Below, in pieces: positions 1 to 25,706 of a stretch of DNA of 64,000 nucleotides; within the stretch, counting starts at the first letter, position 1, and every line of letters begins with the position of its first letter. Under the pieces are notes generated by a model, which was given only the letters and a program-made list of their open reading frames with translations, was not told the DNA's origin and searched no databases. This DNA comes from Xanthobacteraceae bacterium (lineage in GTDB: Bacteria > Pseudomonadota > Alphaproteobacteria > Rhizobiales > Xanthobacteraceae): the NCBI GenBank assembly GCA_028282095.1, contig JANQIP010000280.1, forward strand, positions 2,962-66,961, written 5' to 3'. The translations under genes and the position numbers were made by a program.

Positions 1-1096
1 CGCTGGGCAGCCGGCCGATGGCCTCATGGATGTCGGCCGACACCGCCGCGCGCAGCGCGCCGGTGCTCGCGAGCAGCTTGGCGATCGCGTCCGGCGCCTG
101 CGCTGCGATCGCGCTCGCCGCCGCATCGAGCACATCCAGCGCCGCCATCAGCCGCGCGCGCCAGGCCATCGCCTCCTGCCGCGACTCGTACGGAATCTCG
201 GCGACGCTGCGCGCGCCTTGCGCGAGGATCGCCGCACTCGCGCCGACCAGCACCGCGCGCTCGGGCAGCGACACGGCATCGAGCGCAGCAATCTCGGTCG
301 CGAGCGCCAATAGCATGGCCGCGCCATCGCGCGGGCCGAACACCGCGGACGCGATGGCCGGCGCTGTGGCGGGGGCAATCGCCGGCGCCGGCGCGCCGAT
401 CGCGAGCGTCGCGATCGGCTCGGGCAGTGCGGTCACGGCCGCGCCGAGCGATGCCGCGTCCGATGCTGCGCCGATCGCCGCGATCGGTGTCACCAGCGCC
501 CGCTCCACCGCATCGGCACCGCGTTGTCGCGCGGCCGCCGCCGACACCACTGCGGCCACGGTCTCTGCGCTCATGCGTGCCGCCGACCACAGCGCGACCG
601 GCAGCATTGCAGCCCCAGTGACGGCGGTGATCAGTGCCGCCCCGCGCACGCCGACCGATGCGAGCGCGCCGAGCAGCACCGGCAGTGTCGCCAGCGCAAG
701 CGGCGGCGGCTCGGCCGGCAGAAACCCGACACGGATGCGTGCGACCCGCAGCTCGGTTGCCGAGTAGGAGATCACGGCGGGCCGCGCCACGACGACGAGC
801 TGTTCGCCCGTCCACGGATGCAACAGCATGCCCGGTCCCGGCACATCGAACGCCGCGCGCAGCGCTTCGGCCTGCACCACATAGTCATCGCCGACCACGA
901 GCCCGATGATCTCAATGATTCCGCGATGCAGCCCGAGGTCCTCGATCGCCGCATGATCGAGGCCGGGGAACAGCGTGTGCACGATCCGCCGCCCGGCCTC
1001 GTGGCGCGCATCCGGGATGTAGAACGGCACGCCGCGGAACGCGCCCGGCAGCAGGCCGGGCAGCACCAGCTCGGGATCGATGTCGATGATGCTCAT
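1..1096 (-). CDS. DNA circularization protein N-like (Mu gpN family), N-terminal part; ORF runs off window
   Basis: Own translation from ATG at 1096 (TGATG overlap with tape-measure stop): MSIIDIDPELVLPGLLPGAFRGVPFYIPDARHEAGRRIVHTLFPGLDHAAIEDLGLHRG... I translated it without stops down to about position 600. Absent from the ORF track, consistent with no in-window stop. Position after tape measure as in Mu. Confidence 0.6.
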   Translation of the reverse strand, partial: MSIIDIDPELVLPGLLPGAFRGVPFYIPDARHEAGRRIVHTLFPGLDHAAIEDLGLHRGIIEIIGLVVGDDYVVQAEALRAAFDVPGPGMLLHPWTGEQLVVVARPAVISYSATELRVARIRVGFLPAEPPPLALATLPVLLGALASVGVRGAALITAVTGAAMLPVALWSAARMSAETVAAVVSAAAARQRGADAVERALVTPIAAIGAASDAASLGAAVTALPEPIATLAIGAPAPAIAPATAPAIASAVFGPRDGAAMLLALATEIAALDAVSLPERAVLVGASAAILAQGARSVAEIPYESRQEAMAWRARLMAALDVLDAAASAIAAQAPDAIAKLLASTGALRAAVSADIHEAIGRLPS

Positions 1097-2952
1097 CACG
1101 GCACCCCGAGCATCAGCCCGCGATCGGGGACGAGCGGCACGTCGCGGTGCTCGCTCTCCGCGCGCGTGACGCGCCCCGGCCCTTCGACGCTGACGACGAT
1201 GCGTCCACCGACCTTCTGCTCCGGCGCCGCGAGCGGCGCATAGCTCTTGCCGCCCGCGGCCTGCATCTGCATCTGCATTGGCATCGGCACCAGCGGCGTG
1301 CCGGCGCCCGAGAACATGCGCCGGACCCACTCGGGAATGAGGGAGTCCCACCATCGCGCGATACGCGTCGCCGCCGCGGAAAAGGCGCCCTCGATGCCCT
1401 CCCAAAGGCCCGCAAGAAAGCCTCTGATTGGCTCCCATTTTTGATAGAGCACAACCGCCGCTGCGCCGAGCGCGGTGACGGCTGCGACCACGGCCCAGAT
1501 CGGCGCACCGATCAGCGCGGCGATGCCGCCGGCGACCGCGACGACGGCAGTGGCCAGCACGCCGAACCCGCTCGCAATCGCAGGACCGAGCAGCCCGAGC
1601 GCGGTGGCGACCAGCAGCAGGCTGCCGCCCCAGGCGATCGCCTTGTCCACCGCGCCCGGCAACCTCGTGTCGAGCCAGTTGACCCCGGCCAGCAGGCTTT
1701 GCAGCGCGCTATTGAGCAAGGGCAGGTTCTCAACGAAAGCCCTGCCGACCCGGCGCGTCGCCTGTTCGCCCACCTCGGCGAAGCGCTCCAATTGCGGCGT
1801 CAGCCCGGCCATGCGCGAGCGGAAATCATCAGCGAGCACGCCCGTCCGCGGATCGCCGCGCATCGCCGTGACGATCTTGTCCTTGATCACGCGGAAGTCC
1901 GCTACCCCGGCCAGCATCGGAATGAGAAAATTCTTCACCTGCATGTCGCCGAACATCGCGGCGACCTCACCACCGCCGCGAATGGCGCGGATGCGCGCCG
2001 AGAGCGCGGCGATCTCCGCCGGATCGGTGATGCCGCCCTTTTTCGCGCGCGCCTGCAGCTCTTCGATTTCGGCGCTGGTCATGCCGGCGAGGTCGAGGAT
2101 TTTTTTGATCGCGGCTTCGATGGGGTTGATACCACCCCAGACCGCCTCTTCCATGGTGCCTCTTATGTCGACACCCCTTTTTTTGAAGTTTGCGATCGTC
2201 TCCTTGGAGAGGATTTTTGAGAGGAAGTTCTCGACATTCGTCGCCGCCTGCGCCGGCTCGGCGGCCGCACGCATGGCGATCTGCAGTGCCGCACCGATAT
2301 GCGCCACGGCCTCCTCGCCGGTGACGCCGAGATTGGCCAACAGCCCGGTCAGCCGCGGGAAGGCGCGCGCCATATCGGGTAGCTCGAACCGCCCTTCTTT
2401 GCCGCCGACGCCGAGGCCGGCGAAGACGTTCTCCATCCGCTCGGCCGCGATTCTGAGATTCTGGTTCAGCGCGACGGCCATGCGTGCCATGTCGGCGATC
2501 TCGGCGCCGGCCGCGGTGGCGGCGCGGCCTAGCTGCGGCATCAGCGTCGCGACGACATCGCGGTCGAGCCCGGCCGCGATCAGAATTTGCGCCGCCTCGG
2601 CAAGCTGGGTCGAGCGTTGCCCGACCTCGAGCGCCAGGCGCTCATAGCTGCGCGCCAGCGTCGTCACATCCGCCTGCATCGCGCGCGACACCGTGCCCGA
2701 CGTGATCGCGAGGTCGCGCAGCCTGGCGTCAAAATCCGCCGCGGCCTTAAGCGGCCCGACGAAGGAGAGGCCGGCGCCGAGCGCGCCGATGGCGCCGATC
2801 CGCCCGGCGAGGCCGGCGACGCGTGCGCTCATCGCGCTGATGCGACCGGTCAGCGCCGTGAGTCCTTGGACTCGCCCCGTGATCCGCTGCAGCGGGCCGG
2901 TGATGCGGTCGACCAGCCTCACCAGCACGGACAAAGCCATCTGCTTGTTCAC
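1096..2952 (-). CDS. tail tape measure protein
   Basis: 618 aa, Ala/Gly/Leu-rich helical protein with hydrophobic C-terminal segments. GTG start overlaps stop of the chaperone frameshift ORF (GTGA). Sits between chaperone and gpN-like gene. Confidence 0.8.
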   Translation of the reverse strand: MNKQMALSVLVRLVDRITGPLQRITGRVQGLTALTGRISAMSARVAGLAGRIGAIGALGAGLSFVGPLKAAADFDARLRDLAITSGTVSRAMQADVTTLARSYERLALEVGQRSTQLAEAAQILIAAGLDRDVVATLMPQLGRAATAAGAEIADMARMAVALNQNLRIAAERMENVFAGLGVGGKEGRFELPDMARAFPRLTGLLANLGVTGEEAVAHIGAALQIAMRAAAEPAQAATNVENFLSKILSKETIANFKKRGVDIRGTMEEAVWGGINPIEAAIKKILDLAGMTSAEIEELQARAKKGGITDPAEIAALSARIRAIRGGGEVAAMFGDMQVKNFLIPMLAGVADFRVIKDKIVTAMRGDPRTGVLADDFRSRMAGLTPQLERFAEVGEQATRRVGRAFVENLPLLNSALQSLLAGVNWLDTRLPGAVDKAIAWGGSLLLVATALGLLGPAIASGFGVLATAVVAVAGGIAALIGAPIWAVVAAVTALGAAAVVLYQKWEPIRGFLAGLWEGIEGAFSAAATRIARWWDSLIPEWVRRMFSGAGTPLVPMPMQMQMQAAGGKSYAPLAAPEQKVGGRIVVSVEGPGRVTRAESEHRDVPLVPDRGLMLGVP

Positions 2953-7942: not shown

Positions 7943-8839
7943 TCACACCGCCAGCCAGGGCACGACGAGCAGCTCGGCGGTGCCCTTCCATTCGTTGGTC
8001 TCACCGCCGGCGGCGTACTCGCTGTTGAGCAGCTTCCGTCCGGCGGACTCATTGGTCGGACCGACGATGAGGAGGCGCGGCATGATGCCGAGCGGGCGAC
8101 CGTAATCGCCCTTCATGCCGAGCAGCGCGGCCCGGGCCGCCGAGTAATAAGTCGCGTTGAGCGGCTGCTTCGAGCCCCACGCAAACTGCCAGAAGCCGAA
8201 CCCGACATTGTAACGAGCATCGACCCCGTAGCGGTATTCGCGCTTGTTGAAGACATTGTCGTCGTCGACCCGATCCATGGCGACGAACTGCGGCGCCTTG
8301 CGCATCTGGAACAGGATCGGCTTGAGCGCCCGTCGATCATCGATCAGGAACCAGGGCTCCCCCGCGCCGCCGTCGGTGTTGGCGACTGACACCTCGACGC
8401 CCGCTTCATTGAGCACGGGGTGGTCGGCGTCAAAATAGTTCTGCTTGTCGTAACACGCCGTGGTGAAGCCGGCCTTGAGCAGCGGCCAGACGAGCTGGTC
8501 AACATGGGCTCCGGTCGACATGCCCATCTCGGTGAACAGCGGCGTGTAGATTCCCAGATTGTCGTCCTCGATGTCGTCGCGATCGACGCCGATGGTCAGC
8601 TCGAACGGCCGGTTCTTGATCTTGTAGGCGTGCGTCGCGATGTTCTGGATGACGCGGTCCCCAATCCATTCGCGCATCGAGGGGATTTTGCCGAGCCAGC
8701 CATATTCCTCCTCGCGCGTCGACGAGGGCACCGTTGTAGCAACGCGCCCATACATCGACGCAGCCTGACCGAGACCGCCCTGGAAGGCAGTGCGGTAGCC
8801 GATATAGAGGCTGCGCAGATTGGCCTGATTGATGATCAT
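7943..8839 (-). CDS. major capsid protein (Mu gpT family)
   Basis: MIINQANLRSLYIGYRTAFQGGLG...EEEYGWLGKIPSMREWIGDRV is a classic Mu-like gpT N-terminus. 298 aa. Confidence 0.9.
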   Translation of the reverse strand: MIINQANLRSLYIGYRTAFQGGLGQAASMYGRVATTVPSSTREEEYGWLGKIPSMREWIGDRVIQNIATHAYKIKNRPFELTIGVDRDDIEDDNLGIYTPLFTEMGMSTGAHVDQLVWPLLKAGFTTACYDKQNYFDADHPVLNEAGVEVSVANTDGGAGEPWFLIDDRRALKPILFQMRKAPQFVAMDRVDDDNVFNKREYRYGVDARYNVGFGFWQFAWGSKQPLNATYYSAARAALLGMKGDYGRPLGIMPRLLIVGPTNESAGRKLLNSEYAAGGETNEWKGTAELLVVPWLAV

Positions 8840-8849
8840 GAGTGTCCCG

Positions 8850-9269
8850 TCAGATGCCGATGCCGGTGATGACCCAGACGCCCAGGTCGTCGACGTCCAC
8901 GATCTTGCCGGCGCGCGAGCGCGTGCCGGTGCCGTCGGTCTTGGCCACCGTTTGATCGTCGACGATGTAACAGTCGTCTCCGATCTCGGCGCGCGTGATC
9001 TCGTCGGCGGCAGCGGAGTTGGCCCAGCGATAGCAGCCGGACAGCGCTCGCACCCGGATATCGCCGTCGAGGCCGCCGGAGTTGTCGGCGCGGCGCTCCG
9101 CGCGGCCGAGCGCGATCAGGCCGGGCGCGGTAGCGCCGGGCACGCCAAGACCGGCGGCGTCGAGACAGACGAGCGCACCGCCATGGATCAGCGCTGCCCC
9201 CTTGACCGGCGGCTCGTGCAGGGCGCCGGCGCGCGAGGGCGTGTTGCGGTCGGCGGTGAGCGCGGTCAT
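8850..9269 (-). CDS. DUF2190-like head protein (decoration/cement candidate)
   Basis: 139 aa between the protease/scaffold and capsid genes. Gly/Ala-rich beta-type pattern. Confidence 0.45.
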   Translation of the reverse strand: MTALTADRNTPSRAGALHEPPVKGAALIHGGALVCLDAAGLGVPGATAPGLIALGRAERRADNSGGLDGDIRVRALSGCYRWANSAAADEITRAEIGDDCYIVDDQTVAKTDGTGTRSRAGKIVDVDDLGVWVITGIGI

Positions 9270-10387
9270 CGCGCGATCTCCTCGTTGTGGGCTTTGAGCT
9301 GCTCCCCATAGGCCTTTGGATCGAGGCCCATCAGCGCGCAGACTTCGCGATCCGTCTCGCTGAGGCCGTCGGCGCCGGGCTCGGTGCTCGCGCCGCGCCG
9401 GGCCCCGCCGTCATGCAGCGAGACCATGCCGGCAAGCTCTTTGGCGACGCCGTCCGGGTCTTTGACGTGGCGCTCGATGTAGTGGTCGCGCAGCGGCTTG
9501 ATCGGCTTGCCGCCGGCGATCGCGGCGTCGATCGCGCGAGTCGCGCGCTCCTTGGCGCGGTCGGCGTCCATTGTGTCGAGCTTCGTCTGCAGCTCGATCA
9601 CGGTCTTGGCGAGTTTGTCGGTGTCGGTGCCGCGTGTCTGTAGATGCTTGACCACCACGTCGGCCGTCGCGCTCTTCGCCGCGCTCGCGTCGAGCCCGGC
9701 TGCCTCGGCGATCCGGGCGAGGTCGGTGCTGCGCGCCTGCAGATGCGTGACCACGACGTCGGCCGTCGCATTCTGCGCCGCAGTGGCATCGAGACCGGCG
9801 GCCTTGGCGATGCGCTTGCGTTCGGCGCTGTGAGTCGCAATGGCGGTCTGCGCCGCGGTCGCGGCGGCGAGGATCGCCGCTTCGTCCGCATCCGCCGCGA
9901 GACCCAGTGCCGCGCGCAGCTTTGCCCACATGTCAGTGCTCCTCTGATGGAGTGTGGTGAGATTGAGATTCGGATCGTTCGTGAGCGACGCCCGCAACAG
10001 CTTCACCACGCGACCCGTGTCGCGCATCGAGACGATGGCCGGCGACAGGCCGCGATAAGCGCGGTCGGCGAGCAGCGCCCGGCCCGACTCGGTCCACTCG
10101 ACGCGCCCCCACAGCCCGTCGTCGCGCGCTTCCAGGGCGGTGATCCATCCGCGCGCCGGCGACGGCCGTCCGTCGCGGCCGGCGAGATCAATCGAATGGT
10201 TTTCGTCGATGGCGATCTTGCCGCCGGCCATCGAGGCCGCGATCACCGCTGGCGAATCGGCCAGTGTATAAGGGCCGCGGCCGTCCGCGCCGCGGAACGT
10301 GCCGGCCGGCACGAGGTGCACCCATTCGGGTGGTTCGGCGGCAGGCGCGGGCAGCGCGGAGAACAGCGTGGCGACCAGCTCGGGCAT
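9266..10387 (-). CDS. Mu gpI-like head protease/scaffold protein
   Basis: N-terminus VHLVPAGTFRGADGRGPYTL...IDENHS...ARGWITALEARDDGLWGRVEWT matches the Mu-like prophage I protein pattern. The Ala-rich C-terminal scaffold part carries a 99-bp tandem duplication. Confidence 0.85.
   Translation of the reverse strand: MPELVATLFSALPAPAAEPPEWVHLVPAGTFRGADGRGPYTLADSPAVIAASMAGGKIAIDENHSIDLAGRDGRPSPARGWITALEARDDGLWGRVEWTESGRALLADRAYRGLSPAIVSMRDTGRVVKLLRASLTNDPNLNLTTLHQRSTDMWAKLRAALGLAADADEAAILAAATAAQTAIATHSAERKRIAKAAGLDATAAQNATADVVVTHLQARSTDLARIAEAAGLDASAAKSATADVVVKHLQTRGTDTDKLAKTVIELQTKLDTMDADRAKERATRAIDAAIAGGKPIKPLRDHYIERHVKDPDGVAKELAGMVSLHDGGARRGASTEPGADGLSETDREVCALMGLDPKAYGEQLKAHNEEIAR
9638..9830 (-). 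repeat. 99-bp in-frame tandem duplication in the gpI scaffold region
   Basis: ctgtagatgcttgaccaccacgtcggccgtcgc... (9638) and ctgcagatgcgtgaccacgacgtcggccgtcgc... (9737). Peptide repeat AAGLDA(T/S)AA(Q/K)(N/S)ATADVVV(T/K)HLQ. Confidence 0.8.
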
Positions 10388-10419
10388 GCCGCGCTTATCG
10401 CAGATGGCGGATCGCCCGC

Positions 10420-10445
10420 GTCATGCCCGCCGCTGCGGGCATGAG
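10420..10445. repeat. GTCATGCCCGC-N4-GCGGGCATGA hairpin
   Basis: Second copy at 21190-21214. Confidence 0.7.
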
Positions 10446-10477
10446 CCATCCGCCTCAGGTCATCGGATAGCCCAGGC

Positions 10478-10560
10478 CATCCGTTCGTCCCCGCGCAAGC
10501 GGGGACCCAGTATATCTTGTCTTGCCAAGACTGGATTCCCGCTTTCGCGGGAATGAACGG
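10478..10560 (+). repeat. double-hairpin REP (GTCCCCGC..GCGGGGAC + ATTCCCGC..GCGGGAAT), copy in prophage
   Basis: Same element as 55026-55103 (+) and 57641-57717 (-). Confidence 0.85.
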
Positions 10561-10593
10561 AGGAGGAGTGCACCTGCAAGCGCAATCTCTAAT

Positions 10594-10649
10594 CTCCCTC
10601 TCCCGCTTGCGGGGGAGGGAGCTGAGCGTAGCGAAGCGGGAGGGGGCAC
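10594..10649. repeat. GC-rich palindromic unit, intergenic (gpI/gpG)
   Basis: ctccctctcccgcttgcgggggaggga.... Confidence 0.75.
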
Positions 10650-10656
10650 TGTTCTG

Positions 10657-11175
10657 TTATGGCTTGGTGGGAGTCGCGCGATCGAGCGCGTCGGTCACCG
10701 TCTCGGCGATGACGCGCTCGTCCTCCGGGCCGATGCCGAGATACGGGCGCGCCGGGATCGTCACCGACTTCGCCTTGACAACGCCCGAGGCGAGTCTGAA
10801 CACTAGGTGTGAGGCCTTCACCGGCACGATGGTGGCACCTTCCTGGTGCACCCGCGCGTGGATTTTGTTGGTGCCGACCTCTACCGCGTCGGGCGATGCG
10901 AGAAAGGTGATCGACCCCATCAGCCCGCCGCGCATCCCGGCCTCGCGCAGGATGCCGGGCCCGCGCTTGAGCGGCGCATAGGCGGGATGGAGGGGTGCCC
11001 AGGGATTACCGTCCGGGTCCACTGCGGCCTCGAACCGGTCATGGACATTGCGGACCAAGCCAGTGCCGATCGCCCGCATGACCGGCGTGGTGTTTTGGAG
11101 GGCTTTTTGGAGGGCCTGAAACGCCTTTAAGACGATTTGATCTTCGATCGACGTTTCGAGCGTGACGCCGACCAT
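10657..11175 (-). CDS. virion morphogenesis protein (Mu gpG-like)
   Basis: ...MRAIGTGLVRNVHDRFEAAVDPDGNPWAPL...TNKIHARVHQEGATI...IPARPYLGI matches the gpG family pattern. Confidence 0.8.
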   Translation of the reverse strand: MVGVTLETSIEDQIVLKAFQALQKALQNTTPVMRAIGTGLVRNVHDRFEAAVDPDGNPWAPLHPAYAPLKRGPGILREAGMRGGLMGSITFLASPDAVEVGTNKIHARVHQEGATIVPVKASHLVFRLASGVVKAKSVTIPARPYLGIGPEDERVIAETVTDALDRATPTKP

Positions 11176-11178
11176 CGG

Positions 11179-11439
11179 CTATTCCGGCCGCATCCCGATC
11201 AGGGTGCCGTCTTCGCCGACAATGGCGCGCGGACCGGCGTTTACAACCCTTGACCCCTGGACAATCGTGCCGTCCGGAAATTCGAGGCCGCCACCGACGA
11301 CTTCCTCTTCCCAGACGCGCTTAAACCCCGGCGTGTCGCCGCGCCGCATCTTGCGGCCGTCGACCTCGACGATCTCATCGCGCGGGTCAATGGGCGGGGT
11401 CTTCTGGTCCATGATAGTCCAGGATACGCCTGTTTTCAT
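11179..11439 (-). CDS. hypothetical protein (86 aa) between Mu F and G
   Basis: ATGA overlap with the Mu F stop; ends 4 nt before the gpG start. No domain recognised. Confidence 0.45.
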   Translation of the reverse strand: MKTGVSWTIMDQKTPPIDPRDEIVEVDGRKMRRGDTPGFKRVWEEEVVGGGLEFPDGTIVQGSRVVNAGPRAIVGEDGTLIGMRPE

Positions 11440-13181
11440 GCCGGCTCAAGCAGGACGCGCACCCGGTCGTCCGCTACCGTCTCGACATCCAGAATGCGCC
11501 AGCGCTGGCCGCGGGGAAATATGTACTCCGCCTCATAGTCGGTGCCGGGCAGGGCACGCATGCCCTTCTTGGCTCTTATGCTGAACACGACTGCGGGTGC
11601 CGGCGGTGCGACGGCGAAGGTCGCGAAGCCCTCGGCGGTCGAGCGCTCCACCGAGGCCGAAAAATAACCATCGTCCCGATACACAGCGCCCTTCGACATC
11701 AACGCCCGCTCAACGCTCGGAAACTTCTCGTCGAACTTGGAGCCGCGGTGGAGCAGCACATCGGTCTTCAGCGCCGACTGCTCGATCGCACTGTCGAGCT
11801 GTTGCGTCACCTGACGCCAGTCGCCGAGGGCGTTGTCCTCCGGCATTGCGCCGCCGGCGCGGCGGAGTTGATCGTTCCAGTTCGAGTAGCCGGCGCCGGT
11901 GTAGAACCGCCGCGCCGCTTTCTGGTCGGCATCCAAATACGTATCGAGCGCCTCGATCGCCGCCCGCTGATCGGCGAGCCCCGCCTCCTTGGTGACCGGC
12001 GTCCATTGCGCCGTCGTCTGCGGCTTGAGCATCGCCTTGGTCGCGCCGTCCTGGACGCGGCCGAGCGTGGGATCGCGCGGCACGACGGGCGACGGAGCTG
12101 ACGGCGGCGCGGCGGGGGCAGCCTTTTTCGGTCCTTTGGCCCCCTTGAGCGCATCGAGCCAGCTCGGCGTCGGCGGTGGCGTCGCCGGCGGTGCAGGCGG
12201 CGGTGTTTCCGGCGCCGGTGGCGTCGCGGGCTCGGGCTTGGGCGGAGGTGGCGGCGCAGCCGGCTTCGGCGGCGCTGGCGGAGGCGCGGCCTTGGCTTTC
12301 GGTTTTGCTTTGGCCTTCGGCGCTGGCTCGGGCTTGGGCGGAGGCGGCGGTGCAGGCGGCTTTGGCGGCGCTGGCGGAGGCGCGGCCTTGGGCTTCGGTT
12401 TTGCTTTGGCCTTCGGCGCCGGCTTGGGCTTCGCTTTCGGCGGCGGCGTGATCGGCGGCGGGTCGAGCGTTGCATTGGGCGGCAGCGATATGGGCGTCGC
12501 CTTCCACACCGCGCCGGGATTGTAGTCGAAGCTCGGATCGATGCCCTTTGGCACCTGATGGACCTGCCCCGTCTTGGGGTTTGTCCAGGCGCGCATCTCG
12601 GTGGGTGGCGCTTGGTCGGGACTGCTCTTGCCCTGGCGCGCGAGATCGCGTGCGGAGAGCACGCGCACCCGGCAGCCGCAGCGCCAGCCATTGGGCGGAT
12701 AATGCGTCTCCCACCACGAGTCGTCCGCGCGCAGTACCAGCCCGTTCCACGACAGGTGATCGAGGCGCGGGTGCAACGCGCCTGAATGGACGTACTGCCA
12801 ATAGGGGTATTGCGCGCGCGTCTCCGGCGCGGTCGCCTGGGCGTAGCGGCCAGCGCTGTAGGCCATTGACAGATTGGTCTCGTAGATGATGCGTGCGCGC
12901 CAGCCCGGCGTGCCGGTGTGCTTCCACCCGTGTTTCTTCACGATGGCGTCGAACTGCTTGCGGAAGTCGGCGAGCGTCGTGCCCTGCTCCAGCGCCTTCG
13001 TCACTTCGGCGCGGAAATCCTTGACCAGCGCTTCGGTCGCCGCGCCCGCAACCGTGAACGCCCGCGCATTGGCGCGCTGCCACACATCGGTCCAATGCGT
13101 CGACGTCGCATTGGTCTTCTCGGCAAAATACTGAATCGCCTCCTCGAACGGCAGCGACAGCGCCTTGACCGTCGTCGTCAT
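11436..13181 (-). CDS. Mu F-like head morphogenesis protein fused to a C-terminal ADP-ribosyltransferase (R-S-E type) domain
   Basis: N-terminus (start MTTTVKALSLPFEEAIQYF at 13181) has Mu F hallmarks: RIIYETNLSMAYSAGRY, HPRLDHLSWNGLVL, PPNGWRCGCRV. Then a Pro/Ala/Lys linker. C-terminus has FYTGAGYSNWNDQLR, LHRG, GYFSAS and YEAEYIFPRG (ExE). Confidence 0.85.
   Translation of the reverse strand: MTTTVKALSLPFEEAIQYFAEKTNATSTHWTDVWQRANARAFTVAGAATEALVKDFRAEVTKALEQGTTLADFRKQFDAIVKKHGWKHTGTPGWRARIIYETNLSMAYSAGRYAQATAPETRAQYPYWQYVHSGALHPRLDHLSWNGLVLRADDSWWETHYPPNGWRCGCRVRVLSARDLARQGKSSPDQAPPTEMRAWTNPKTGQVHQVPKGIDPSFDYNPGAVWKATPISLPPNATLDPPPITPPPKAKPKPAPKAKAKPKPKAAPPPAPPKPPAPPPPPKPEPAPKAKAKPKAKAAPPPAPPKPAAPPPPPKPEPATPPAPETPPPAPPATPPPTPSWLDALKGAKGPKKAAPAAPPSAPSPVVPRDPTLGRVQDGATKAMLKPQTTAQWTPVTKEAGLADQRAAIEALDTYLDADQKAARRFYTGAGYSNWNDQLRRAGGAMPEDNALGDWRQVTQQLDSAIEQSALKTDVLLHRGSKFDEKFPSVERALMSKGAVYRDDGYFSASVERSTAEGFATFAVAPPAPAVVFSIRAKKGMRALPGTDYEAEYIFPRGQRWRILDVETVADDRVRVLLEPA
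12229..12420 (-). repeat. 96-bp in-frame tandem duplication in the Pro/Ala/Lys linker of the Mu F-ART protein
   Basis: ggctcgggcttgggcggagg... starts at 12229 and again at 12325. Encodes PKPEPAPKAKAKPK(P/A)KAAPPPAPPKP(P/A)APPPP twice. Confidence 0.8.
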
Positions 13182-13236
13182 GCCCCCTCGCCCCGCGCCG
13201 ACTCGGACTGGGGAGAGGCGTCTGCACTTCCGCTCA

Positions 13237-13410
13237 CCTTTCCCCGCGCCGAACGCGGGTGTTCCCGTGTTCGGCCCAGTTTCGAGTGGCCCAAGTCGGG
13301 AACACCCGACTTGGGCTGGGGAGAGGTCGACGCGCGAAGCGCGGCGGGTGAGGGGCAATGCACAGCCCCCTCCCGTCTTGCTCCGCTCGTCGTCAGGGAG
13401 GGGGCGCGCA
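13237..13410. repeat. composite GC-rich palindromic cluster, intergenic (portal/Mu F)
   Basis: gccgaacgcgggtgttcccgtgttcggc, gcccaagtcgggaacacccgacttgggc and gtcgacgcgcgaagcgcggc units. Confidence 0.8.
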
Positions 13411-13419
13411 TCATCGCGC

Positions 13420-15096
13420 TCAGATCTCGTCGAGCAGCGCCGCCTCGCCGGCGAGATGCGCGAGCGCCATCGCCCGCGTCATCGCCTCAGTGAGGGCGTC
13501 GGCGGGGAGATCGAGCCGCGCCAGCCGGTCGGCGAGGTCCGCGAGATCGCTCGCATCATTGAATGCCGCGCGCACTTCGTCGGTCAGCCCGGCCATGGCG
13601 CCGGCCGCATCGGCCGCCAGCCGCTCGGTCAGCCGCTCGACATGGTCGGGCTCGGGAGACACCGCGTGCCGCGCGATGATGTGGCGGACCGTGTTGAGGC
13701 TTGCGCCATCATCAGTTTTACCTCCCCCCTTGAGGGGGAGGTCGGTCGGCGCAGCCGACCGGGAGGGGGGTGACTGCACCTCGTCGAGCGGGTTGGGGAG
13801 GGGGCCCGCCGGGGGCGGCGGTCGGCCGCCGATCACCTCGGCATCAGGCGCGGGCTCATCAAACCCGAGCCGGTCGCGCACCTGGCTCGCCTCGACCGTG
13901 AGGCCGTGCGGCCCGAGCTTTTCGAGGGCCGAGATCACCGTGTCGATCGGCGTCTCGTCCGGGCGGCCGACAACGATGCGCGGATATTTCCGCTGCGGCC
14001 CGAAATTGAACGCGATGATGCAGGGGACGAGCTGGCGCGTCAGCGTCGCCGAGATCATCTTGGCGTCGCTGCGCTCTAAATCCTCCTGGACCAGGCGATG
14101 CTCCTGGCCGACGGCATGGCCGCCGGCGATCGCATCGGTCGTCGCCGTCTGCCCGAGGACCAATTTGCTGATCTGCTGGTCCATCCAATTCGCGCGCTCG
14201 GCATAGAGCTGGCCGCCGCCGCCCGACTTCGCGCTCTCGACCGAGACGAACTCGATCTCCATCCCCTGCGGGATGATCGCGGCGCAGTCGCCGGCGATAT
14301 TGGCGACGGCGCGCCACAGAGTCTCTTTGTCGGCATCGGTTGCGGCCGGATGGTATTTGCCGACGCGGACGGGCATGCCGTAGTTCTGGCAGAAGATCGC
14401 CCAGTCCTTGATGGTGAACGCCTTGTACATCCATGCCCAGCTCGCCACGCGCGCGATGCCGGACCGGATGGTGAGGCCGCTCTTGGATGGATGCCTGTGG
14501 ATCAGGAACTTGTGGGGCGCGAGCGGCAGGCGACCGACACCGTCGAGCAACAGCGGCGTCTCATAGTCTGTTTGATCGAGCGCGAACCAACGCTGCGGCC
14601 GATAGGTGAGGGCGCGCGGCGCGACCAGGTCGGGCGCCGAGTCCCACTCGATCTCAACGATGGCGAGTCCTTTGCCCACCGCGTCCAGCATGTCGAATAG
14701 CGCGGCGTCGAGCACGCCCTCGCGCAGCCAGTCGCGCAGAAAATCCGCGTGCCCCACATGCTCGGCGTCATCGCTCGCCGACTCGACCGTGACCGGGAGC
14801 TGCGCGACCTGGCGCCGGCGTGTGCCGAGCACCGCGGCGTAGTGCAGGTCGCGCTCCTCGATATCCTCCGCCAACTCCAGGTATGAGAGCGGATCGCCGG
14901 CGGCGGCGGCGCGGTGGATGGCGGCGAGCCGTGAGGGTGTCAACCCCTCGGCGGGATGGCCGGAGATCGGCGAGCGCACGCCGGTGAGCGAGGGCCCGGC
15001 CTTGGGCGGACCGAACAGCTCGTCGAGGTCGATTCGCTCGCCATCCGGACCGAGGATGCGGGAGAGCCGCGGCATCAGTTGCCGCCCCGCCCGCAA
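13420..15096 (-). CDS. portal protein (Mu gp29 / DUF935 type)
   Basis: 558 aa. ...DPLSYLELAEDIEERDLHYAAVLGTRRRQV... is typical. The start may instead be the internal MPRLSRILG at 15075. Contains an in-frame REP-like insert near the C-terminus. Confidence 0.9.
   Translation of the reverse strand: MRAGRQLMPRLSRILGPDGERIDLDELFGPPKAGPSLTGVRSPISGHPAEGLTPSRLAAIHRAAAAGDPLSYLELAEDIEERDLHYAAVLGTRRRQVAQLPVTVESASDDAEHVGHADFLRDWLREGVLDAALFDMLDAVGKGLAIVEIEWDSAPDLVAPRALTYRPQRWFALDQTDYETPLLLDGVGRLPLAPHKFLIHRHPSKSGLTIRSGIARVASWAWMYKAFTIKDWAIFCQNYGMPVRVGKYHPAATDADKETLWRAVANIAGDCAAIIPQGMEIEFVSVESAKSGGGGQLYAERANWMDQQISKLVLGQTATTDAIAGGHAVGQEHRLVQEDLERSDAKMISATLTRQLVPCIIAFNFGPQRKYPRIVVGRPDETPIDTVISALEKLGPHGLTVEASQVRDRLGFDEPAPDAEVIGGRPPPPAGPLPNPLDEVQSPPSRSAAPTDLPLKGGGKTDDGASLNTVRHIIARHAVSPEPDHVERLTERLAADAAGAMAGLTDEVRAAFNDASDLADLADRLARLDLPADALTEAMTRAMALAHLAGEAALLDEI
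13721..13783. repeat. 63-bp palindromic element, copy 2 (intragenic, portal)
   Basis: Near-identical to 5772-5834. Confidence 0.85.
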
Positions 15097-15214: not shown

Positions 15215-15487
15215 TCATGTGGCAGGCTCGTCGTTGTAGGCGATCTTCGCCTGCTCGGCGCGGCTCATCTTGGTTGCGCGACTGGCCTCCACGAGGTCGC
15301 CTTTGAGCGGCAAGGCGTCTACGACGCCGAGCAAATCGCCGACTTCCTTGGCGAGCGCGTCACTGTTCACGCCATAGCTCGCCGGATCGCCATCCCAGCC
15401 GAAGCGCAGACACTTCGTGGCGGCCTGGATGACCTCGCCGCATTCCTCGATCAGGAGGATGAGCAGTTCGTCTCGCGTCACAGTCAC
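15215..15487 (-). CDS. small MazG-like nucleotide pyrophosphohydrolase
   Basis: LLIEECGEVIQAATKCLRFG...LAKEVGDLLGVVDAL is the all-alpha MazG EExxE-type pattern. 90 aa. Confidence 0.55.
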   Translation of the reverse strand: MTVTRDELLILLIEECGEVIQAATKCLRFGWDGDPASYGVNSDALAKEVGDLLGVVDALPLKGDLVEASRATKMSRAEQAKIAYNDEPAT

Positions 15488-15777
15488 CCCCTCTCTCGCG
15501 GCCGGTAAACGCGGCGCAGCTCGTCATTCTTGCGCTGGTGGTCCCTGATCGCCGGGCGCTGCCCTCTTTCTCTTCGGCCCTCTTCGAGGCCCGACTGGTA
15601 GGCCGCGGAAGTCTCTTCGTTGAGAACGAGCTGGAACTCCTCGGTGATGATGTCCTCGATGCGCGTCCATGCGCGCATCAAGGCGCGCTGGAACGGGCTT
15701 GCGGGCTTGCCCGTCTCGGCGAAGCGCGCGAGCGACGCCGCGGTCGCGCTCTTGCGTGGATTGCCGCCCGCGCTCAC
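15484..15777 (-). CDS. hypothetical protein
   Basis: 97 aa, overlaps neighbours by 4 nt at both ends. Confidence 0.4.
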   Translation of the reverse strand: MSAGGNPRKSATAASLARFAETGKPASPFQRALMRAWTRIEDIITEEFQLVLNEETSAAYQSGLEEGRRERGQRPAIRDHQRKNDELRRVYRPRERG

Positions 15778-17417
15778 AGCCGCCCCCTCAGCTCGCGCGG
15801 CCGGATGCGCCGAACGTCGCCATAGCCGCCCATGAAATCATCGCCGGCGCTCTCGCCCAGCGCGCGCGGCGCCGCGCCGACCGGCGTGTAGCCATAGGCG
15901 ATCGCGTCGGCGTCCATCGCCGCATTGGCGAGCACCAGCGCGATGGCGAAATCGCCGTGGCGCTTCCCGCCGTCGCCCCCCGTCGTGTGCGCATCGTCCG
16001 GCACCTTCGGCACGCCGCGCACCATCCGCACCTGGCGCAGATCGTCCTTGAGGTCGGCATCGCGCGGCAGCGCGATCGTCCGGTCCTCGAAGCGCCGCTT
16101 GAGTGGCGGCACGTTCGCGAGATACCAGGGCTGCGACGGCATCACCGCTTCGATCGCCAGCGGGCCGTATTTCTGGATCGCGTATTCAGCGAGTGCCTGG
16201 CCATTGCCACGCGCGTCATGTTGGCCGGCCGAGAACCGCGGCAGCCGGTCGGCGACATAGAACAGGATGCGCTCCTGCTCCCTGAACGGCGTGTTGCGTA
16301 GCTCGATCACGAACGGCGTGCGGCGGACGAGGTCGCGCCCTTCCGCCAGCGGTGCCATCACCGACAGGTCACCGCTGCGGGCGAAGTCGTAGCCATAGGC
16401 GTGGCGCAGTCGCGTATCGAGCTGCTTCAGTGCGGGGGCGACATGGTCGCGCAGCCAATCGTCGACGAATGACGCGCGCTCGTGATCGGAGCGCAGCTCG
16501 AAACCCTCCGGGCACACGAGGCGCAGCACCGGCGCGTCTACCGCTGTCATGCAGCTCTCGATCAACGCTGACGAAAAGTAGACGCCCTCACCCTGTGCCG
16601 GGATGCAGTCCAGCTCCTCGGCGGCGCCGTCGCCGTAATAAGCCCTGATCTCGGCGCGGAACTGCGCCTCCGCCTCGGGCGACCATTCCTTGCCGCGCAC
16701 CAGGCAGATGCGTTGATAGAGTCCCTGCTCCAGCGCATCGTCGAAGGTGCAACGCACGACTTTGCCCGGCCGGCGACCCTCGCGGATTTCCTGGATCAGC
16801 GCGTTGAATGGATTGTCGACGCCGTTATGCGTCGAAATCACGAGCACCTTGCCGCCCCAGATCAGCAGCGCCATCGCTGCCTTGAGCAGCGCCTCGGCGT
16901 CATCGTGGAAAGCGAACTCGTCGATGATCACATAGCCTTGTCGCCCGCGCAGCGAGCGCGGCCGCGACGACAGCGCCACGATCTCGAAGCCGGAGGCGAA
17001 GGTGATGCGGAATGCCTGAATGGCGCGCTCGGCGCCCTTCTCGCCTTCCTCGCGGAAGAGGAATTCGTCGACTGCGCTGCTCGCCGCCGCGAACGCCCGC
17101 GCCCACATGGCGCAGCAATCGATGAACTCGCGCGCCATGTCGAGATTGTACCCGATATAGAGCACGTCCATTCCGCCGCTGCTCTTCGCGGCGCCGGCGG
17201 TGAGCACGGCGTCGGCGCCGATTCCCCAGGTCGCCCCGATGCGGCGGGACTTGTCGGTCACGACGAGCGGATGCGATGCCGTCGCGCGGAGCATCGCGCC
17301 CTGATAGGGAAGCAGCACCTCGGGCAGGCTCACCCCGCGCAGCACCGGCGGCAGCTCGGCCAGCATCTCGCGGCGGTGGCGCGCCCAGTCCTCGGCGGTG
17401 ACGAGCAGCTCGGTCAT
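15774..17417 (-). CDS. terminase large subunit (Mu gp28-like)
   Basis: 547 aa. LLPYQGAMLRA...DKSRRIGATWG (Walker A-like). C-terminal nuclease-like region. Follows the DUF3486-like small subunit. Confidence 0.9.
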   Translation of the reverse strand: MTELLVTAEDWARHRREMLAELPPVLRGVSLPEVLLPYQGAMLRATASHPLVVTDKSRRIGATWGIGADAVLTAGAAKSSGGMDVLYIGYNLDMAREFIDCCAMWARAFAAASSAVDEFLFREEGEKGAERAIQAFRITFASGFEIVALSSRPRSLRGRQGYVIIDEFAFHDDAEALLKAAMALLIWGGKVLVISTHNGVDNPFNALIQEIREGRRPGKVVRCTFDDALEQGLYQRICLVRGKEWSPEAEAQFRAEIRAYYGDGAAEELDCIPAQGEGVYFSSALIESCMTAVDAPVLRLVCPEGFELRSDHERASFVDDWLRDHVAPALKQLDTRLRHAYGYDFARSGDLSVMAPLAEGRDLVRRTPFVIELRNTPFREQERILFYVADRLPRFSAGQHDARGNGQALAEYAIQKYGPLAIEAVMPSQPWYLANVPPLKRRFEDRTIALPRDADLKDDLRQVRMVRGVPKVPDDAHTTGGDGGKRHGDFAIALVLANAAMDADAIAYGYTPVGAAPRALGESAGDDFMGGYGDVRRIRPRELRGRL

Positions 17418-18082
17418 GAGCCCTCTCCCGCCGCGCTGCGCGCGTTATCCTCGCCCGCTTGCGGCTGATCGTGAGGGGGCGCCGTCACGCCGAGAATCCT
17501 TGCCTTGATCGTCTCGACCGTCTCGGCTGACAGTCCCTTGGCTGCGGCGACGGCATCGACGGCTTTGTTCGCGCGCGCCTGGACCTCCGCCTCGATCTTC
17601 CTGCGGCCGTCCGCGCTGATGCGTTTGGCCTCCTCCGCATGTTTGAGTGCGCGGCTCGTCTGCATCAGCATCTCGGCGGTGGCGCCGTCTGCGGCGATCT
17701 CGCCGGCATTGGAGAGCATCTCATGCAGCAGCGTCTTGATCGCCTCGGAGACCAGCAGCGTCACCGAGTCATCGCCCGCGCGATCGAGCTTCGGCGCCAG
17801 CACGGCCGCGATCTCGCGCGTCTCCGTCAATCGCCGGCCGAGCACGGCGAGCCTGAACGCCGTGCGATTGAATGCCGATCGCGAAATCTGCGGCGGATCG
17901 GTGACGCCGTTTTCCCACGCCGCGGCCTTGAGCGCTTCGTTGAACTCGGCGAGGATTTCGAGTTGCGGCTTTTTGCGCTCCTTGAGCGCGGCGAAGGCGG
18001 CGAGCCGCGCTTCGTCCGCCCACTCGGGGAGCTGGTCGATCGCCGACAGTCGTCCGCGGCCGCGGTGCTCGCGCTCGGTCAT
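17414..18082 (-). CDS. terminase small subunit-like protein (Mu gp27 / DUF3486-like)
   Basis: RGRLSAIDQLPEWADEARLAAFAALKERKKPQLEILAEFNEAL pattern. ATGA overlap with the large subunit. Confidence 0.7.
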   Translation of the reverse strand: MTEREHRGRGRLSAIDQLPEWADEARLAAFAALKERKKPQLEILAEFNEALKAAAWENGVTDPPQISRSAFNRTAFRLAVLGRRLTETREIAAVLAPKLDRAGDDSVTLLVSEAIKTLLHEMLSNAGEIAADGATAEMLMQTSRALKHAEEAKRISADGRRKIEAEVQARANKAVDAVAAAKGLSAETVETIKARILGVTAPPHDQPQAGEDNARSAAGEGS

Positions 18083-19044: not shown

Positions 19045-20943
19045 TCACGGCAGCTCAATGCCCAGCTCGGCGGCGGTTTCCGGACCGACTTCGCCGTCGA
19101 TCACGAGGCCGCGCTCACGCTGAAGCGTCGATACGGCCGCCTCAGTTCTCGCGCCGAACGCGCCATCGATATCGCCGGGCGAATAACCCGCCGCCTTCAG
19201 CGCCTCCTGGATTTCGCGCACCTTGGACTCGCGCATGTTAGGCTGTCCGCGCGCGTAGATCGTCGCGGGTGCCGCGACGTCGACAGGATCGTGGCCGTCA
19301 TATGCGATCCACGGCACCAGGCCGCCGATGTCCCAGCGGCGGCCGCTGATCCGGTCGGCAACGATGCCCTCGCGCGTGGATTTAGCCTCGACAGTGCCAC
19401 CCTGGCCGTCGGAGATGGCGATGTGGCCGATACCCGATCGGCCCGGCCTGCGCAGGACAAAGGCGCCTGGCGTGGCCGCAGCCTCTTCGACCGTCAGGGC
19501 GACGCCGCGCTTGTTCACATCCTTCCAGAACGCGCCCGTGTAAGCGTCGGCGCTGCTCATCGGCGCGCTATTGTCGACGCACCCATACAGCCGCCCCGTC
19601 AGCCGGGCGATCAGGTAGGAGACGAACTCCGCGCAGTCCATTCCTTTATCTGCGGGATAGTTCGGATGGTCTTTTGGCACGCGCGCTCCGAGCACATACC
19701 GGCCACCGATATAGGTGCGCGCCAGCGCCAGCAGCTCCTCCCCGTTGACGACATCGTCGCCGACGCTTCCGTCGCGCAATCCTCGCTCGAACAGCGCGGC
19801 CTCGTCCTCTCGACGCCGCAGCAGCCCGCCCAAGCCCCGACCCTCCCAGAGCCGCTTCATCGAGCGGATTTCGCCGGGAATCTTCTCCCACGCCCGTGCC
19901 GCCATGTGTGCCTTGATGGCGCGCATCTCCCGATAGCGATCGAGGCCGTCGGGATCATTGGTGCGGTCGAAGGAGGGGCCGCGATTGTAGGTCAGCGACA
20001 CCAACGCGCCGCGACAGTCCCCCGGTAGTTCCTCGAAATTTGGCAGCGCGCGTTCGCACATTTCATAGAAGCGCGGCACCGTGTCCTGATCAAAGACCGC
20101 GACGGCGGCCTCCCACGGTACGTCGACGCTCTGAACGCGCGGCAGTAGGGCTCGCGCCGCCTTCCCTGTGACGCCGATGCAGCGTTCCAGGGATTTGATC
20201 ATGGCGTCCGAGAGCTTGCCGCGCCAATCCGCCCACAACTGCGCTTTGTCCGACACGCCGGCGCCGACATCGTACCCGATGCCGATGGTCACGCCCGACC
20301 GCCCCCCCGGCCAGGTCGGCCGCTGGTAGTCGCGCTCGTAGACCTCACGTGACGTGACCTCATGCTTGATCAGCATGTCCCGTGCGGCGACTGAGATCAG
20401 GCGCTCAGGCTTGGGCTCGGGTTCCGACGGCTCGACCGGCGACGGCCCAACAATCGGTGTAACCGGCTCGACAGGCGGAGCGATAGGATCGACCGGCAGA
20501 TCAATCGTTGCCCCCGGCCTCGCCAACAACCCGTCCTTCATCCGACTCCCGAGTGACGAGCCGAAGAAGAACATGAGCACCATGATCGCGCCGGCGCCCT
20601 GCAGGCCGAACGCCATGAACAGTAGGGACTCGCCGCCGCCGAAGGTCTTGCCGCCCGTCGCCAGCGCGACGATCACGGCTGCGCCAGTCCCGAGGAATCC
20701 GACGATCCACAGAAAGCTGATCGCCGGCACCACCCACGGCAGCCGAGGCGGAGCTGCCGGCACGGCCGGCGCCACCGGTCTCATCTGCGCGAGCGCGAGC
20801 GTCGCCAGCGTTGCGGGATCAGCGCCCGCGGTGGACGGTGGCGACGGGACGGAGCTTGGTTGAGCCGGCGGCGCGGCTTGTGCCGCGCCGCCGCGGATCA
20901 GCAGCGTGGAGATGAGCTGCGCGAGCGGAGACATGGGGCCCAC
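19045..20943 (-). CDS. multidomain membrane-anchored endolysin (lysozyme-like + NlpC/P60-like + PG-binding domain)
   Basis: N-terminal TM segments and a Pro-rich spacer. GVTIGIGYDVG...LVSLTYNRG lysozyme-like core. DCAEFVSYL...GHIAISDG (Cys/His peptidase). C-terminal VREIQEALKAAGYSPGDIDGAFGARTEAAV (PG_binding_1-like). Confidence 0.75.
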   Translation of the reverse strand: MGPMSPLAQLISTLLIRGGAAQAAPPAQPSSVPSPPSTAGADPATLATLALAQMRPVAPAVPAAPPRLPWVVPAISFLWIVGFLGTGAAVIVALATGGKTFGGGESLLFMAFGLQGAGAIMVLMFFFGSSLGSRMKDGLLARPGATIDLPVDPIAPPVEPVTPIVGPSPVEPSEPEPKPERLISVAARDMLIKHEVTSREVYERDYQRPTWPGGRSGVTIGIGYDVGAGVSDKAQLWADWRGKLSDAMIKSLERCIGVTGKAARALLPRVQSVDVPWEAAVAVFDQDTVPRFYEMCERALPNFEELPGDCRGALVSLTYNRGPSFDRTNDPDGLDRYREMRAIKAHMAARAWEKIPGEIRSMKRLWEGRGLGGLLRRREDEAALFERGLRDGSVGDDVVNGEELLALARTYIGGRYVLGARVPKDHPNYPADKGMDCAEFVSYLIARLTGRLYGCVDNSAPMSSADAYTGAFWKDVNKRGVALTVEEAAATPGAFVLRRPGRSGIGHIAISDGQGGTVEAKSTREGIVADRISGRRWDIGGLVPWIAYDGHDPVDVAAPATIYARGQPNMRESKVREIQEALKAAGYSPGDIDGAFGARTEAAVSTLQRERGLVIDGEVGPETAAELGIELP

Positions 20944-25194: not shown

Positions 25195-25706
25195 GATGCG
25201 GCCTCATCGAGTTCGAACGGTTTGATTTCGAACTCTTCGCCCGCCGATCCGATCGTTATGCCTTGGACGGCCCCGGCGACTTCGGGCTCCTTGAGCATCG
25301 CGTTCTTGTCGAGCTGCTCTTCGAAGCGCGTGGCGATGAATTGGTCGAGCTTGAAGAATTTCAATCGTGCGAGAATGTTCTTGACGGTGTCGCTGAACGT
25401 CACCTTCGCGGGACGACTGCGCCAAGAGACGGTCCCGGTCTCGAATCTCGCGGTCTTGCCCTTACCGCGGGTGAGGCGCTGGCGGTGCTCTGTGCAATAG
25501 GCTTCGAGACGCTCTCGTGAGGTCTTTCTCGCCTCTTCAAGTGGCGCGATTTGCTCGGCAACACGCGCCGCGATGTTCGCGATCCTGTTGTCTCCGTCTG
25601 CCTTGATCTGTGCGATCCGCCGCTCAAGCTTTCCGACGTTGGCGATCGCCGCCGCCGCTTGCTTGTCATTCCGCACATAGGGCGGCGGCTTCGGTCTTTT
25701 CGTCAT
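25191..25706 (-). CDS. gam: Gam-like host nuclease inhibitor (Mu Gam family)
   Basis: AAAAIANVGKLERRIAQIKADGDNRIANI...GKTARFETGTVSWR... is the characteristic Mu Gam pattern. 171 aa. Confidence 0.85.
   Translation of the reverse strand: MTKRPKPPPYVRNDKQAAAAIANVGKLERRIAQIKADGDNRIANIAARVAEQIAPLEEARKTSRERLEAYCTEHRQRLTRGKGKTARFETGTVSWRSRPAKVTFSDTVKNILARLKFFKLDQFIATRFEEQLDKNAMLKEPEVAGAVQGITIGSAGEEFEIKPFELDEAAS

Follow-up and report, generated by a model that had tools for sequence, protein, structure and literature searches.

A MuF–ADP-ribosyltransferase fusion protein and a candidate immunity gene in the head module of a Mu-like prophage of Rhodoplanes

Why does the head module of a prophage encode a minor head protein that ends in a toxin-type enzyme, and what is the role of the small open reading frame (ORF) directly behind it? 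The question is raised by a stretch of 64,000 nucleotides (contig JANQIP010000280.1 of the assembly GCA_028282095.1, positions 2,962 to 66,961), which is called the window in this report. The host genome belongs to the genus Rhodoplanes and comes from a coral metagenome, and the locus lies in a Mu-like (transposable) prophage. Here, one protein joins a MuF-type minor head domain to a C-terminal ADP-ribosyltransferase (ART) domain. This protein, termed MuF-ART, is very probably a MuF-family polymorphic toxin of the prophage, which would be delivered by the capsid, ADP-ribosylate the host and be neutralised by the adjacent small protein. The coordinates of all features are listed in Table 1, and other loci are given by their labels (L) only where they have to be told apart.

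The MuF-ART protein and its catalytic domain

The original prediction, made from the letters of the DNA, described the ORF as a Mu F-like head protein fused to a toxin-type ART domain and proposed a Pfam search as a check. Both families were recovered above the Pfam cut-offs, Phage_Mu_F (PF04233) at residues 55-172 with E 4.5e-16 (60 bits, cut-off 29.6) and ADPrib_exo_Tox (PF03496) at residues 411-577 with E 7.3e-12 (45.5 bits, cut-off 23.4). In PHROGs, phrog_220 ('minor head protein and DNA pilot') covered residues 3-232 with E 2.2e-87, and phrog_3895 ('ADP-ribosyltransferase exoenzyme toxin') covered residues 412-575 with E 1.6e-06. In addition, phrog_802 (Alt-like) matched weakly at residues 410-496 (E 0.031). 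Every motif quoted in the prediction was found in its order and place: PPNGWRCGCRV (residues 162-172) in the MuF part, and FYTGAGYSNWNDQLR (426-440), LHRG (477-480), GYFSAS (505-510) and YEAEYIFPRG (549-558) in the ART part. The MuF domain is a minor head protein of the phage head module, and the whole protein has a three-part architecture of MuF, Pro/Ala/Lys spacer and ART. The homologues begin at MTTTV or VTTTV, equivalent to the ATG at 13181 (MTTTVKALSLPF), so this ATG is the likely start. An upstream TTG start at 13358, giving 640 residues, was rejected, since its 59 additional codons cross a repeated element and MTTTV is where the homologues begin.

The relatives of the catalytic domain were collected by an exhaustive HMMER search with residues 395-581. 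There were 569 relatives at E<=1e-3 and only two at E<=1e-30, so the ART subfamily is rare. A word-index protein search with the ART region gave only 3 relatives, and the same search with the ART alignment gave none, the domain-length candidates being swamped. No relative was found in the scan of metagenome contigs, and the scan of genome contigs gave only R. tepidamans; the orthologous MuF-ART lies in Rhodoplanes tepidamans DSM 9987 (locus L005). When the ten nearest ART-domain relatives were scanned, a MuF was also found in five, and several carried at least two ART copies.

Conservation was counted in an alignment of 147 ART domains. R479 was kept in 144, S508 in 146 and S510 (as S or T) in 143, and in the upstream helix Y427 was kept in 137 and N436 and R440 in 140 each. 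The two glutamates of the ExE motif, whose conservation among orthologues had been named as decisive for the prediction, were kept in 139 (E550) and 143 (E552) of the domains and in all nine close homologues. Furthermore, all eight of these residues were invariant in the nine closest homologues.

The fold was in agreement with the motifs. The sequence search of the PDB with the ART gave a single marginal match (8za7_B, E 0.04), and the domain was placed by fold search. An AlphaFold2 model of the C-terminal domain, built on the nine closest homologue sequences, had a predicted local distance difference test score (pLDDT) of 83.4 and a predicted template modelling score (pTM) of 0.80, with four helices followed by eight strands, in keeping with the ART fold of an N-terminal helical bundle and a split beta-sheet that forms the NAD site. 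The best Foldseek match was 8za7_B, the Listeria ART toxin of an ART and ADP-ribosylhydrolase (ARH) pair, with E 3.3e-12, and R479, S508/S510 and E550/E552 aligned to its R, STT and EAE. Tre1 (6dre_B), a type VI secretion system (T6SS) toxin, followed with E 2.6e-9, and further matches were C3bot, C3stau, C3lim, Plx2a, C3larvin and the enzymatic components of CDT (CDTa) and iota toxin (Ia). All of these matches had a Foldseek probability of 1.00, and the top ones had template modelling (TM) scores of about 0.6-0.7. The predicted superposition on C3 and iota toxin was borne out, with TM scores of 0.66-0.71 to C3bot, CDTa and iota Ia and an ART fold. Among the viral models of BFVD, the best matches were named 'VIP2-like ADP-ribosyltransferase toxin', 'ADP-ribosyltransferase domain and MuF-like fusion protein' and 'minor capsid protein', together with Alt-type RNA polymerase ADP-ribosylases. 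On sequence and model, the C-terminal 186 residues are a predicted mono-ADP-ribosyltransferase of the C3/VIP2 (ADPrib_exo_Tox) type with an intact R-S-ExE catalytic set.

ExE-type ARTs of the C3/VIP2 clade are arginine-specific. Because the ADP-ribosylating turn-turn (ARTT) motif has the ExE form here, arginine is the predicted acceptor residue. The domain might also be an NAD(P)+ glycohydrolase on the ART fold, which would kill by NAD depletion without modifying any protein. Polymorphic toxins with the ART fold that act as NADases exist, such as the Rhs toxin Tne5, and many ARTs have an NADase side activity. However, the complete R-S-ExE set is conserved along with the Y-x6-N..LR helix motif, as is typical of protein-arginine transferases, and the solved folds that come closest (C3, iota Ia, CDTa, Tre1 and the Listeria ART) belong to protein-modifying transferases. 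The NADase explanation is therefore considered improbable.

The linker between the two domains was predicted to be rich in Pro, Ala and Lys and about 110 residues long. The composition was as described, but the length was about 130 residues (239-368), across which Pro, Ala and Lys made up at least 70% in windows. Over residues 240-376 their share was 80% and the pI was 10.5. The predicted 96-bp tandem duplication is real; Tandem Repeats Finder (TRF) gave a period of 96 with 2.2 copies and 91% matches. Of the 96 bases, 8 differ between the two full units, giving five synonymous and three non-synonymous codon changes, and the units are in frame. Such a repeat could be an assembly artefact, or the fusion could be a mis-joined or decaying gene without function, since the genome was assembled from a metagenome in 287 contigs and GC-rich low-complexity repeats are prone to misassembly. 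Against this, a contig of Logan's separate assembly of run X1 was identical to window positions 11100-13269 (2.2 kb, with 0 differences and 0 gaps), although that assembly probably used the same reads and is hence not independent data. Moreover, the sister strain L015, from another sample, has a similarly doubled linker, nine homologous fusions occur in other samples, and the 581 codons are open with all catalytic residues intact. The Logan identity and the L015 linker together show that the duplication is no artefact, and an artefactual or functionless fusion is very improbable. In other loci, Ala/Lys/Glu-rich helical spacers or extra domains replace the linker, so its sequence as such is not essential. 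The basic, Pro-rich spacer is probably an extended flexible tether.

Exchange of the toxin cassette and the small downstream ORF

The same ART subfamily was found in nine further loci, on very different phage backbones. L005, L010, L014, L015 and L001 are Mu-like. L006 and L008/L009 (two copies of one locus in a Rhodovulum metagenome-assembled genome) have a siphovirus-type head module, whose MuF is less than 12% identical to that of the window by local alignment. L002 is a Phage_portal_3-type phage, and L031 is a phage with a DUF4055 portal and a P22-like coat, in which a HINT domain lies between MuF and ART.

Between close relatives, the ART changed and the head part did not. The window and L015 are 88% identical in the N-terminal part and linker and only 44% in the ART; L006 and L008 are 96% identical in the N-terminal part and only 50% in the ART. 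The DNA identity of the window and L015 was about 90% down to about position 12000; between 11999 and 11282 it dropped to 47-68% (mostly 50-58%), and at 11281 and beyond it was back at about 79%. Furthermore, in a Logan contig of run X2, a sister sample, 746 bases of the window (11249-11994) are replaced by 698 unrelated ones, with the joint at 11248/11995. What is exchanged is thus a single cassette, made up of the ART and the small ORF's N-terminal two-thirds. A Phage_Mu_F N-terminus, a location in the head module, a variable C-terminal toxin domain and a downstream ORF of fewer than 150 residues, by which MuF polymorphic toxins are recognised, are all found here. Another genome of the genus, G015, encodes a MuF 81% identical to that of the window, with a non-ART C-terminal domain of about 270 residues that contains HEFGHH, has no Pfam match and is followed by a different small ORF.

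A pre-toxin motif stands just before the cassette breakpoint, where the start of the ART model is of low confidence (mean pLDDT of 42 and 69 in the first ten-residue blocks). It was matched in all eight homologues that were searched with the pattern, and in the protein of the window. Among 153 proteins examined, the motif was present only in the closest ART subfamily, and its core (PKTTAVW) also stands just upstream of the ART in the L031 protein (P0005). The motif may be a processing site or a recombination anchor.

The small ORF is the second part of the cassette. In each of the ten loci of the subfamily, the gene next downstream of the ART is an ORF of one family with 59-80 residues, on the Mu-like, siphovirus-type, Phage_portal_3 and DUF4055/P22-coat backbones alike. 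An alternative start at 11439, which overlaps the TGA of the toxin gene as ATGA, would give 86 residues. A profile search gave 16 members, all unnamed and without Pfam domains. The small ORF itself had no Pfam or PHROG match, its model had no neighbour among the PDB folds (best E 3.1), and no homologue was found by sequence outside a small alphaproteobacterial and metagenomic set. The small ORF does not belong to Mu heads in general. A homologous MuF was found in nine of 61 related genomes, and this ART in only two of the 61. When 401 genomes of the order were sampled separately, only the genome of the window gave the small ORF, apart from a weak match in one other.

From its position and by analogy with known toxin pairs, the 77-residue protein is most likely the cognate, non-enzymatic immunity protein, which would block the ART by binding. 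Over nine loci, the pairwise identity of the small ORF tracked that of the ART (Spearman 0.57, Mantel p 0.017) and did not track that of the MuF part (Spearman 0.12, p 0.30). Several points weigh against the reading as a capsid-delivered toxin with its immunity protein. The Mantel test rests on those nine loci only, the model of the small ORF is only moderate (pLDDT 74, pTM 0.43), and no similarity between the ORF and a known immunity protein was detectable. No ADP-ribosylhydrolase (PF03747) is found in the prophage; the only ARH of the genome is on another contig, C208. The last 22 or so residues of the small ORF (AGPRAIVGxDGTLIGMRPE) are nearly invariant on all backbones, which is unexpected of a pure specificity determinant, so the protein may have a second, shared role. 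In addition, ART-fold toxins can be NAD glycohydrolases rather than transferases, and we infer packaging, ejection, enzyme activity, target and immunity alike from sequence and from analogy.

The invariant C-terminal third of the small ORF would also fit a shared structural partner. The ART could be a host-takeover enzyme like T4 Alt, which would modify a defined host protein (e.g., RNA polymerase) without killing, and the small ORF a packaging chaperone or adaptor. Alt-type RNA polymerase ADP-ribosylases are among the viral fold matches, the weak phrog_802 match is to an Alt-like family, and a lytic producer cell dies anyway, so that its need for immunity is not obvious. However, the ADPrib_exo_Tox and 'exoenzyme toxin' PHROG matches are far stronger than the Alt match. 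Moreover, the ART diversifies jointly with the small ORF's N-terminal two-thirds, and the two are swapped together between near-identical MuF backbones, which is the signature of a toxin-immunity arms race rather than of a conserved takeover role. Bxa, the one MuF-ART that has been characterised, is also bactericidal and depends on immunity proteins. The takeover explanation is accordingly unlikely, if somewhat less so than the NADase one, and the toxin with a cognate immunity protein is preferred.

Copies of the small ORF also occur alone. They lie at L016:2115-2402, L012:4594-4923 and L013:5001-5351, on the strand opposite the head genes, in rearranged Mu-like elements; no MuF-ART was found in these three elements by tblastn. 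The L016 copy is intact with an N-terminal extension, and in the L012 and L013 copies the C-terminal part is replaced. These lone copies may be left over from deletions or may be orphan immunity genes.

A wider proposal is made only tentatively, and we hold it to be somewhat doubtful. The 77-residue protein may found a new family of non-enzymatic ART immunity proteins, in which the variable N-terminal two-thirds would set allele specificity. The invariant C-terminal third and the junction motif would then frame a portable cassette that recombines between unrelated head proteins, and the lone copies (intact in L016, truncated in L012 and L013) would be orphan immunity against incoming MuF-ART phages.

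Proposed mechanism and comparison with known systems

SPP1 gp7 and Mu gpF are portal-associated minor head proteins. By analogy with them and with T4 Alt, the MuF-ART protein would be made late, and its MuF domain would take it into the prohead. Within the producing cell, binding by the small protein would keep the ART domain inactive. At the next infection, the toxin would leave the capsid with the DNA and would ADP-ribosylate arginines of one or more host proteins. Cells without the cognate immunity gene would be poisoned, or the outcome of the infection would be biased.

T4 Alt is a capsid-packaged ART whose N-terminal capsid-targeting sequence is removed by the prohead protease; it is not fused to MuF, and it modulates its target and does not kill. 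The window's protein resembles Alt as a phage ART with the ART fold. Carriage in the head and injection coupled to the DNA are properties of Alt and would be shared here. Unlike Alt itself, the domain does not belong to the Alt family by sequence, as the phrog_802 match (residues 410-496) reached only E 0.031. Among solved antibacterial ART toxins, the closest are those of the Tre1-Tri1 pair (Serratia T6SS, 6dre) and the Listeria ART-ARH pair (8za7), which are also R-S-E ARTs paired with immunity proteins, with which they were solved. They are delivered by T6SS or type VII secretion system (T7SS)-type routes, whereas a phage head would deliver the toxin of the window locus. The immunity proteins of the two pairs are hydrolases of the ARH type (Tri1 has about 400 residues), compared with the 77-residue protein here.

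MuF toxins have been studied before. Jamet et al. 2017 (BMC Biol 15:75, PMC5576092) defined them and found 14% of 191 to be ARTs; loading into the head and delivery with the DNA were proposed there, citing the T4 ADP-ribosyltransferases. The locus is in agreement with that description, with an N-terminal MuF, a variable toxin C-terminus, a place among the packaging and head genes of a temperate phage and, immediately behind the gene, a small ORF. The toxin-bearing MuF proteins of the survey were mostly from Firmicutes, and the MuF proteins of Proteobacteria mostly had C-terminal extensions without a known domain, whereas here a clear ART lies in a Mu-type prophage of an alphaproteobacterium. 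The TonB-like Pro/Ala/Lys spacer is also unlike the MuF toxins of the survey. Iyer et al. 2022 (PMC9503650) reported many Alt/VIP2 ARTs fused to MuF.

A characterised protein of this kind is Bxa of the Bacteroides stercoris prophage PhiBxa (JBC 2024, PMC11699363), an arginine-specific, bactericidal MuF-ART. Adjacent immunity proteins neutralise Bxa; one acts by binding, and the second is a linked ADP-ribosylhydrolase of the ARH1 family (PMC11699363). The locus is like that of Bxa in its MuF-ART fusion in the head morphogenesis region and its adjacent small ORF, and unlike it in having no linked ARH. The small ORF, which has no match in Pfam, PHROGs or PDB folds, may also differ from the immunity proteins of Bxa. 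Bxa was absent among the close sequence relatives of the window's ART. MuF toxins are still poorly understood. According to the account of 2024, characterisation has been limited to the Apk2 proteins and, later, Bxa, and nobody has directly shown that the toxin domain travels in the capsid (PMC11699363).

Fusions of MuF and ART with the same fold are also annotated in GenBank for Microbacterium, Gordonia and Mycobacterium phages. Fifteen cultured Microbacterium phages matched the ART at about 32% identity over half of the domain, and many of the matched genes are annotated as 'MuF-like minor capsid & VIP2-like ADP-ribosyltransferase toxin' or similar. Unlike the prophage of the window, these actinobacteriophages are lytic or temperate and have different linkers.

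The reading of the protein as a MuF-ART fusion is therefore supported by sequence, and it is not new, because Jamet 2017, Iyer 2022, Bxa and the Microbacterium phage annotations precede it and the class is established. The new content is modest and consists of an uncharacterised small-ORF family and the mapped boundaries of the cassette. The locus adds a clear proteobacterial, Mu-type example of MuF-ART, an ART-plus-small-ORF cassette naturally exchanged between strains from the same coral metagenome set, and a candidate immunity family without known relatives. Current understanding of how MuF systems work is left unchanged. The compact gene pair (about 560 bp and about 230 bp) and its natural second allele in L015 are suited to cross-immunity tests.

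Prophage context and further observations

The genome was assembled from reads of coral metagenomes and has 4.67 Mb in 287 contigs. The head module has the order gp27, TerL, portal, MuF-ART, small ORF, gpG, gpI and gpT, with all genes on the same strand (Table 1). Further upstream lie GemA, Gam, MuB and the MuA transposase, and the prophage is assigned to the Mu-like transposable type because these genes accompany a Mu-like head module.

Table 1. Features of the MuF-ART locus and the surrounding head module, in window coordinates
Feature	Position	Strand	Details
Mu gp27-like small terminase	17414-18082	(-)	
Large terminase (TerL)	15774-17417	(-)	
97-residue ORF, family unassigned	15484-15777	(-)	between large terminase and portal
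MazG-like pyrophosphohydrolase	15215-15487	(-)	90 residues; phrog_4856, 2.5e-14; between large terminase and portal
Mu-type portal	13420-15096	(-)	PF06074, 5.4e-98
MuF-ART polymorphic toxin gene (probable)	11436-13181	(-)	581 residues, 63 kDa, pI 9.7; stop TGA at 11436-11438; ORF and domain searches
MuF / SPP1 gp7-like minor head domain, N-terminal	12486-13175	(-)	residues 3-232; Pfam core 55-172 = 12666-13019; phrog_220, PF04233
Pro/Ala/Lys-rich linker	12078-12467	(-)	residues 239-368, strongly basic; composition scan
96-bp tandem repeat, 2.2 copies	12225-12431	(-)	32-residue units KPKPAPKAKAKPKPKAAPPPAPPKPPAPPPPP / KPEPAPKAKAKPKAKAAPPPAPPKPAAPPPPP; TRF
Pre-toxin junction motif	11997-12047	(-)	G.T..M..P.[TS]T[AS].W.P, residues 379-395; pattern match
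Predicted C3/VIP2-type ADP-ribosyltransferase domain, C-terminal	11439-11996	(-)	residues 396-581 (186 residues); Pfam 411-577
Exchangeable cassette	11249-11994	(-)	ART catalytic domain and N-terminal ~55 residues of small ORF; identity profile and Logan joint
R479 codon	11745-11747	(-)	catalytic (predicted)
S508 codon	11658-11660	(-)	catalytic (predicted)
S510 codon	11652-11654	(-)	catalytic (predicted)
E550 codon	11532-11534	(-)	catalytic (predicted)
E552 codon	11526-11528	(-)	catalytic (predicted)
Small ORF, candidate non-enzymatic immunity protein	11179-11412	(-)	77 residues, acidic (pI 4.8); ATG at 11412
Mu gpG-like virion morphogenesis protein (Phage_tail_S)	10657-11175	(-)	PF05069, 2.7e-36
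gpI protease-scaffold	9266-10387	(-)	
phrog_1731 head protein			in head module, same strand
gpT major head protein	7943-8839	(-)	

Several observations were made on the relatives of the MuF-ART protein. A middle module, AHGGNF..A.G..GKF...FGFSSK...W.K.G.LP, lies after the linker and ahead of the junction motif in both L014 (residues ~300-375) and L002 (residues ~525-600), MuF-ART proteins that are otherwise unrelated, so the pre-toxin region is itself modular. In the protein P0003 (L001:2714-4870, 718 residues), a middle domain of about 250 residues separates MuF from the ART. For this domain a weak HipA_C-like kinase signal was obtained, below the cut-off (E 0.006); if this signal holds, P0003 would be a head protein with two effector domains. 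P0005 (L031:3001-7293), a MuF protein of 1430 residues, contains a HINT/intein-like (pretoxin-HINT) domain, ends in an ART of the same subfamily and is followed by a small-ORF family member of 62 residues. Given the HINT domain, some lineages may release the payload by autoproteolysis. In L020 (G015:C16), the ORF at 607-2202 (-) encodes the G015 MuF with the HExxH-type domain, and an ORF of 138 residues, family unassigned, overlaps its end. From its motif, this protein may be a metallopeptidase-type MuF toxin.

Repeat elements are present in at least two spacers of the head operon (13182-13419 and 10388-10656). The 238-bp spacer between the portal and MuF-ART contains, especially at 13242-13300, a palindromic element like the repetitive extragenic palindromic (REP) type, and the 640-residue ORF with the TTG start reads through it. 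In the source metagenome, the summed contig depth rises there from about 68 to more than 11,000, which marks the element as highly repeated. GC-rich hairpin repeats of the host intergenic-repeat type, e.g., cccgcaagcgggagaggg and cccgcgaaagcgggaat, lie in the 270-bp spacer that separates gpG from the protease gene. Elsewhere in the window, a lysis-type protein of 632 residues (19045-20943, (-)) has a solid PG_binding_1 domain, together with weak pesticin/lysozyme-like and NlpC/P60 signals, both below the Pfam cut-offs. In the early region, a protein of 253 residues (25666-26427, (-)) lies between Gam and MuB and has a DnaA C-terminal helix-turn-helix domain (3.1e-14).

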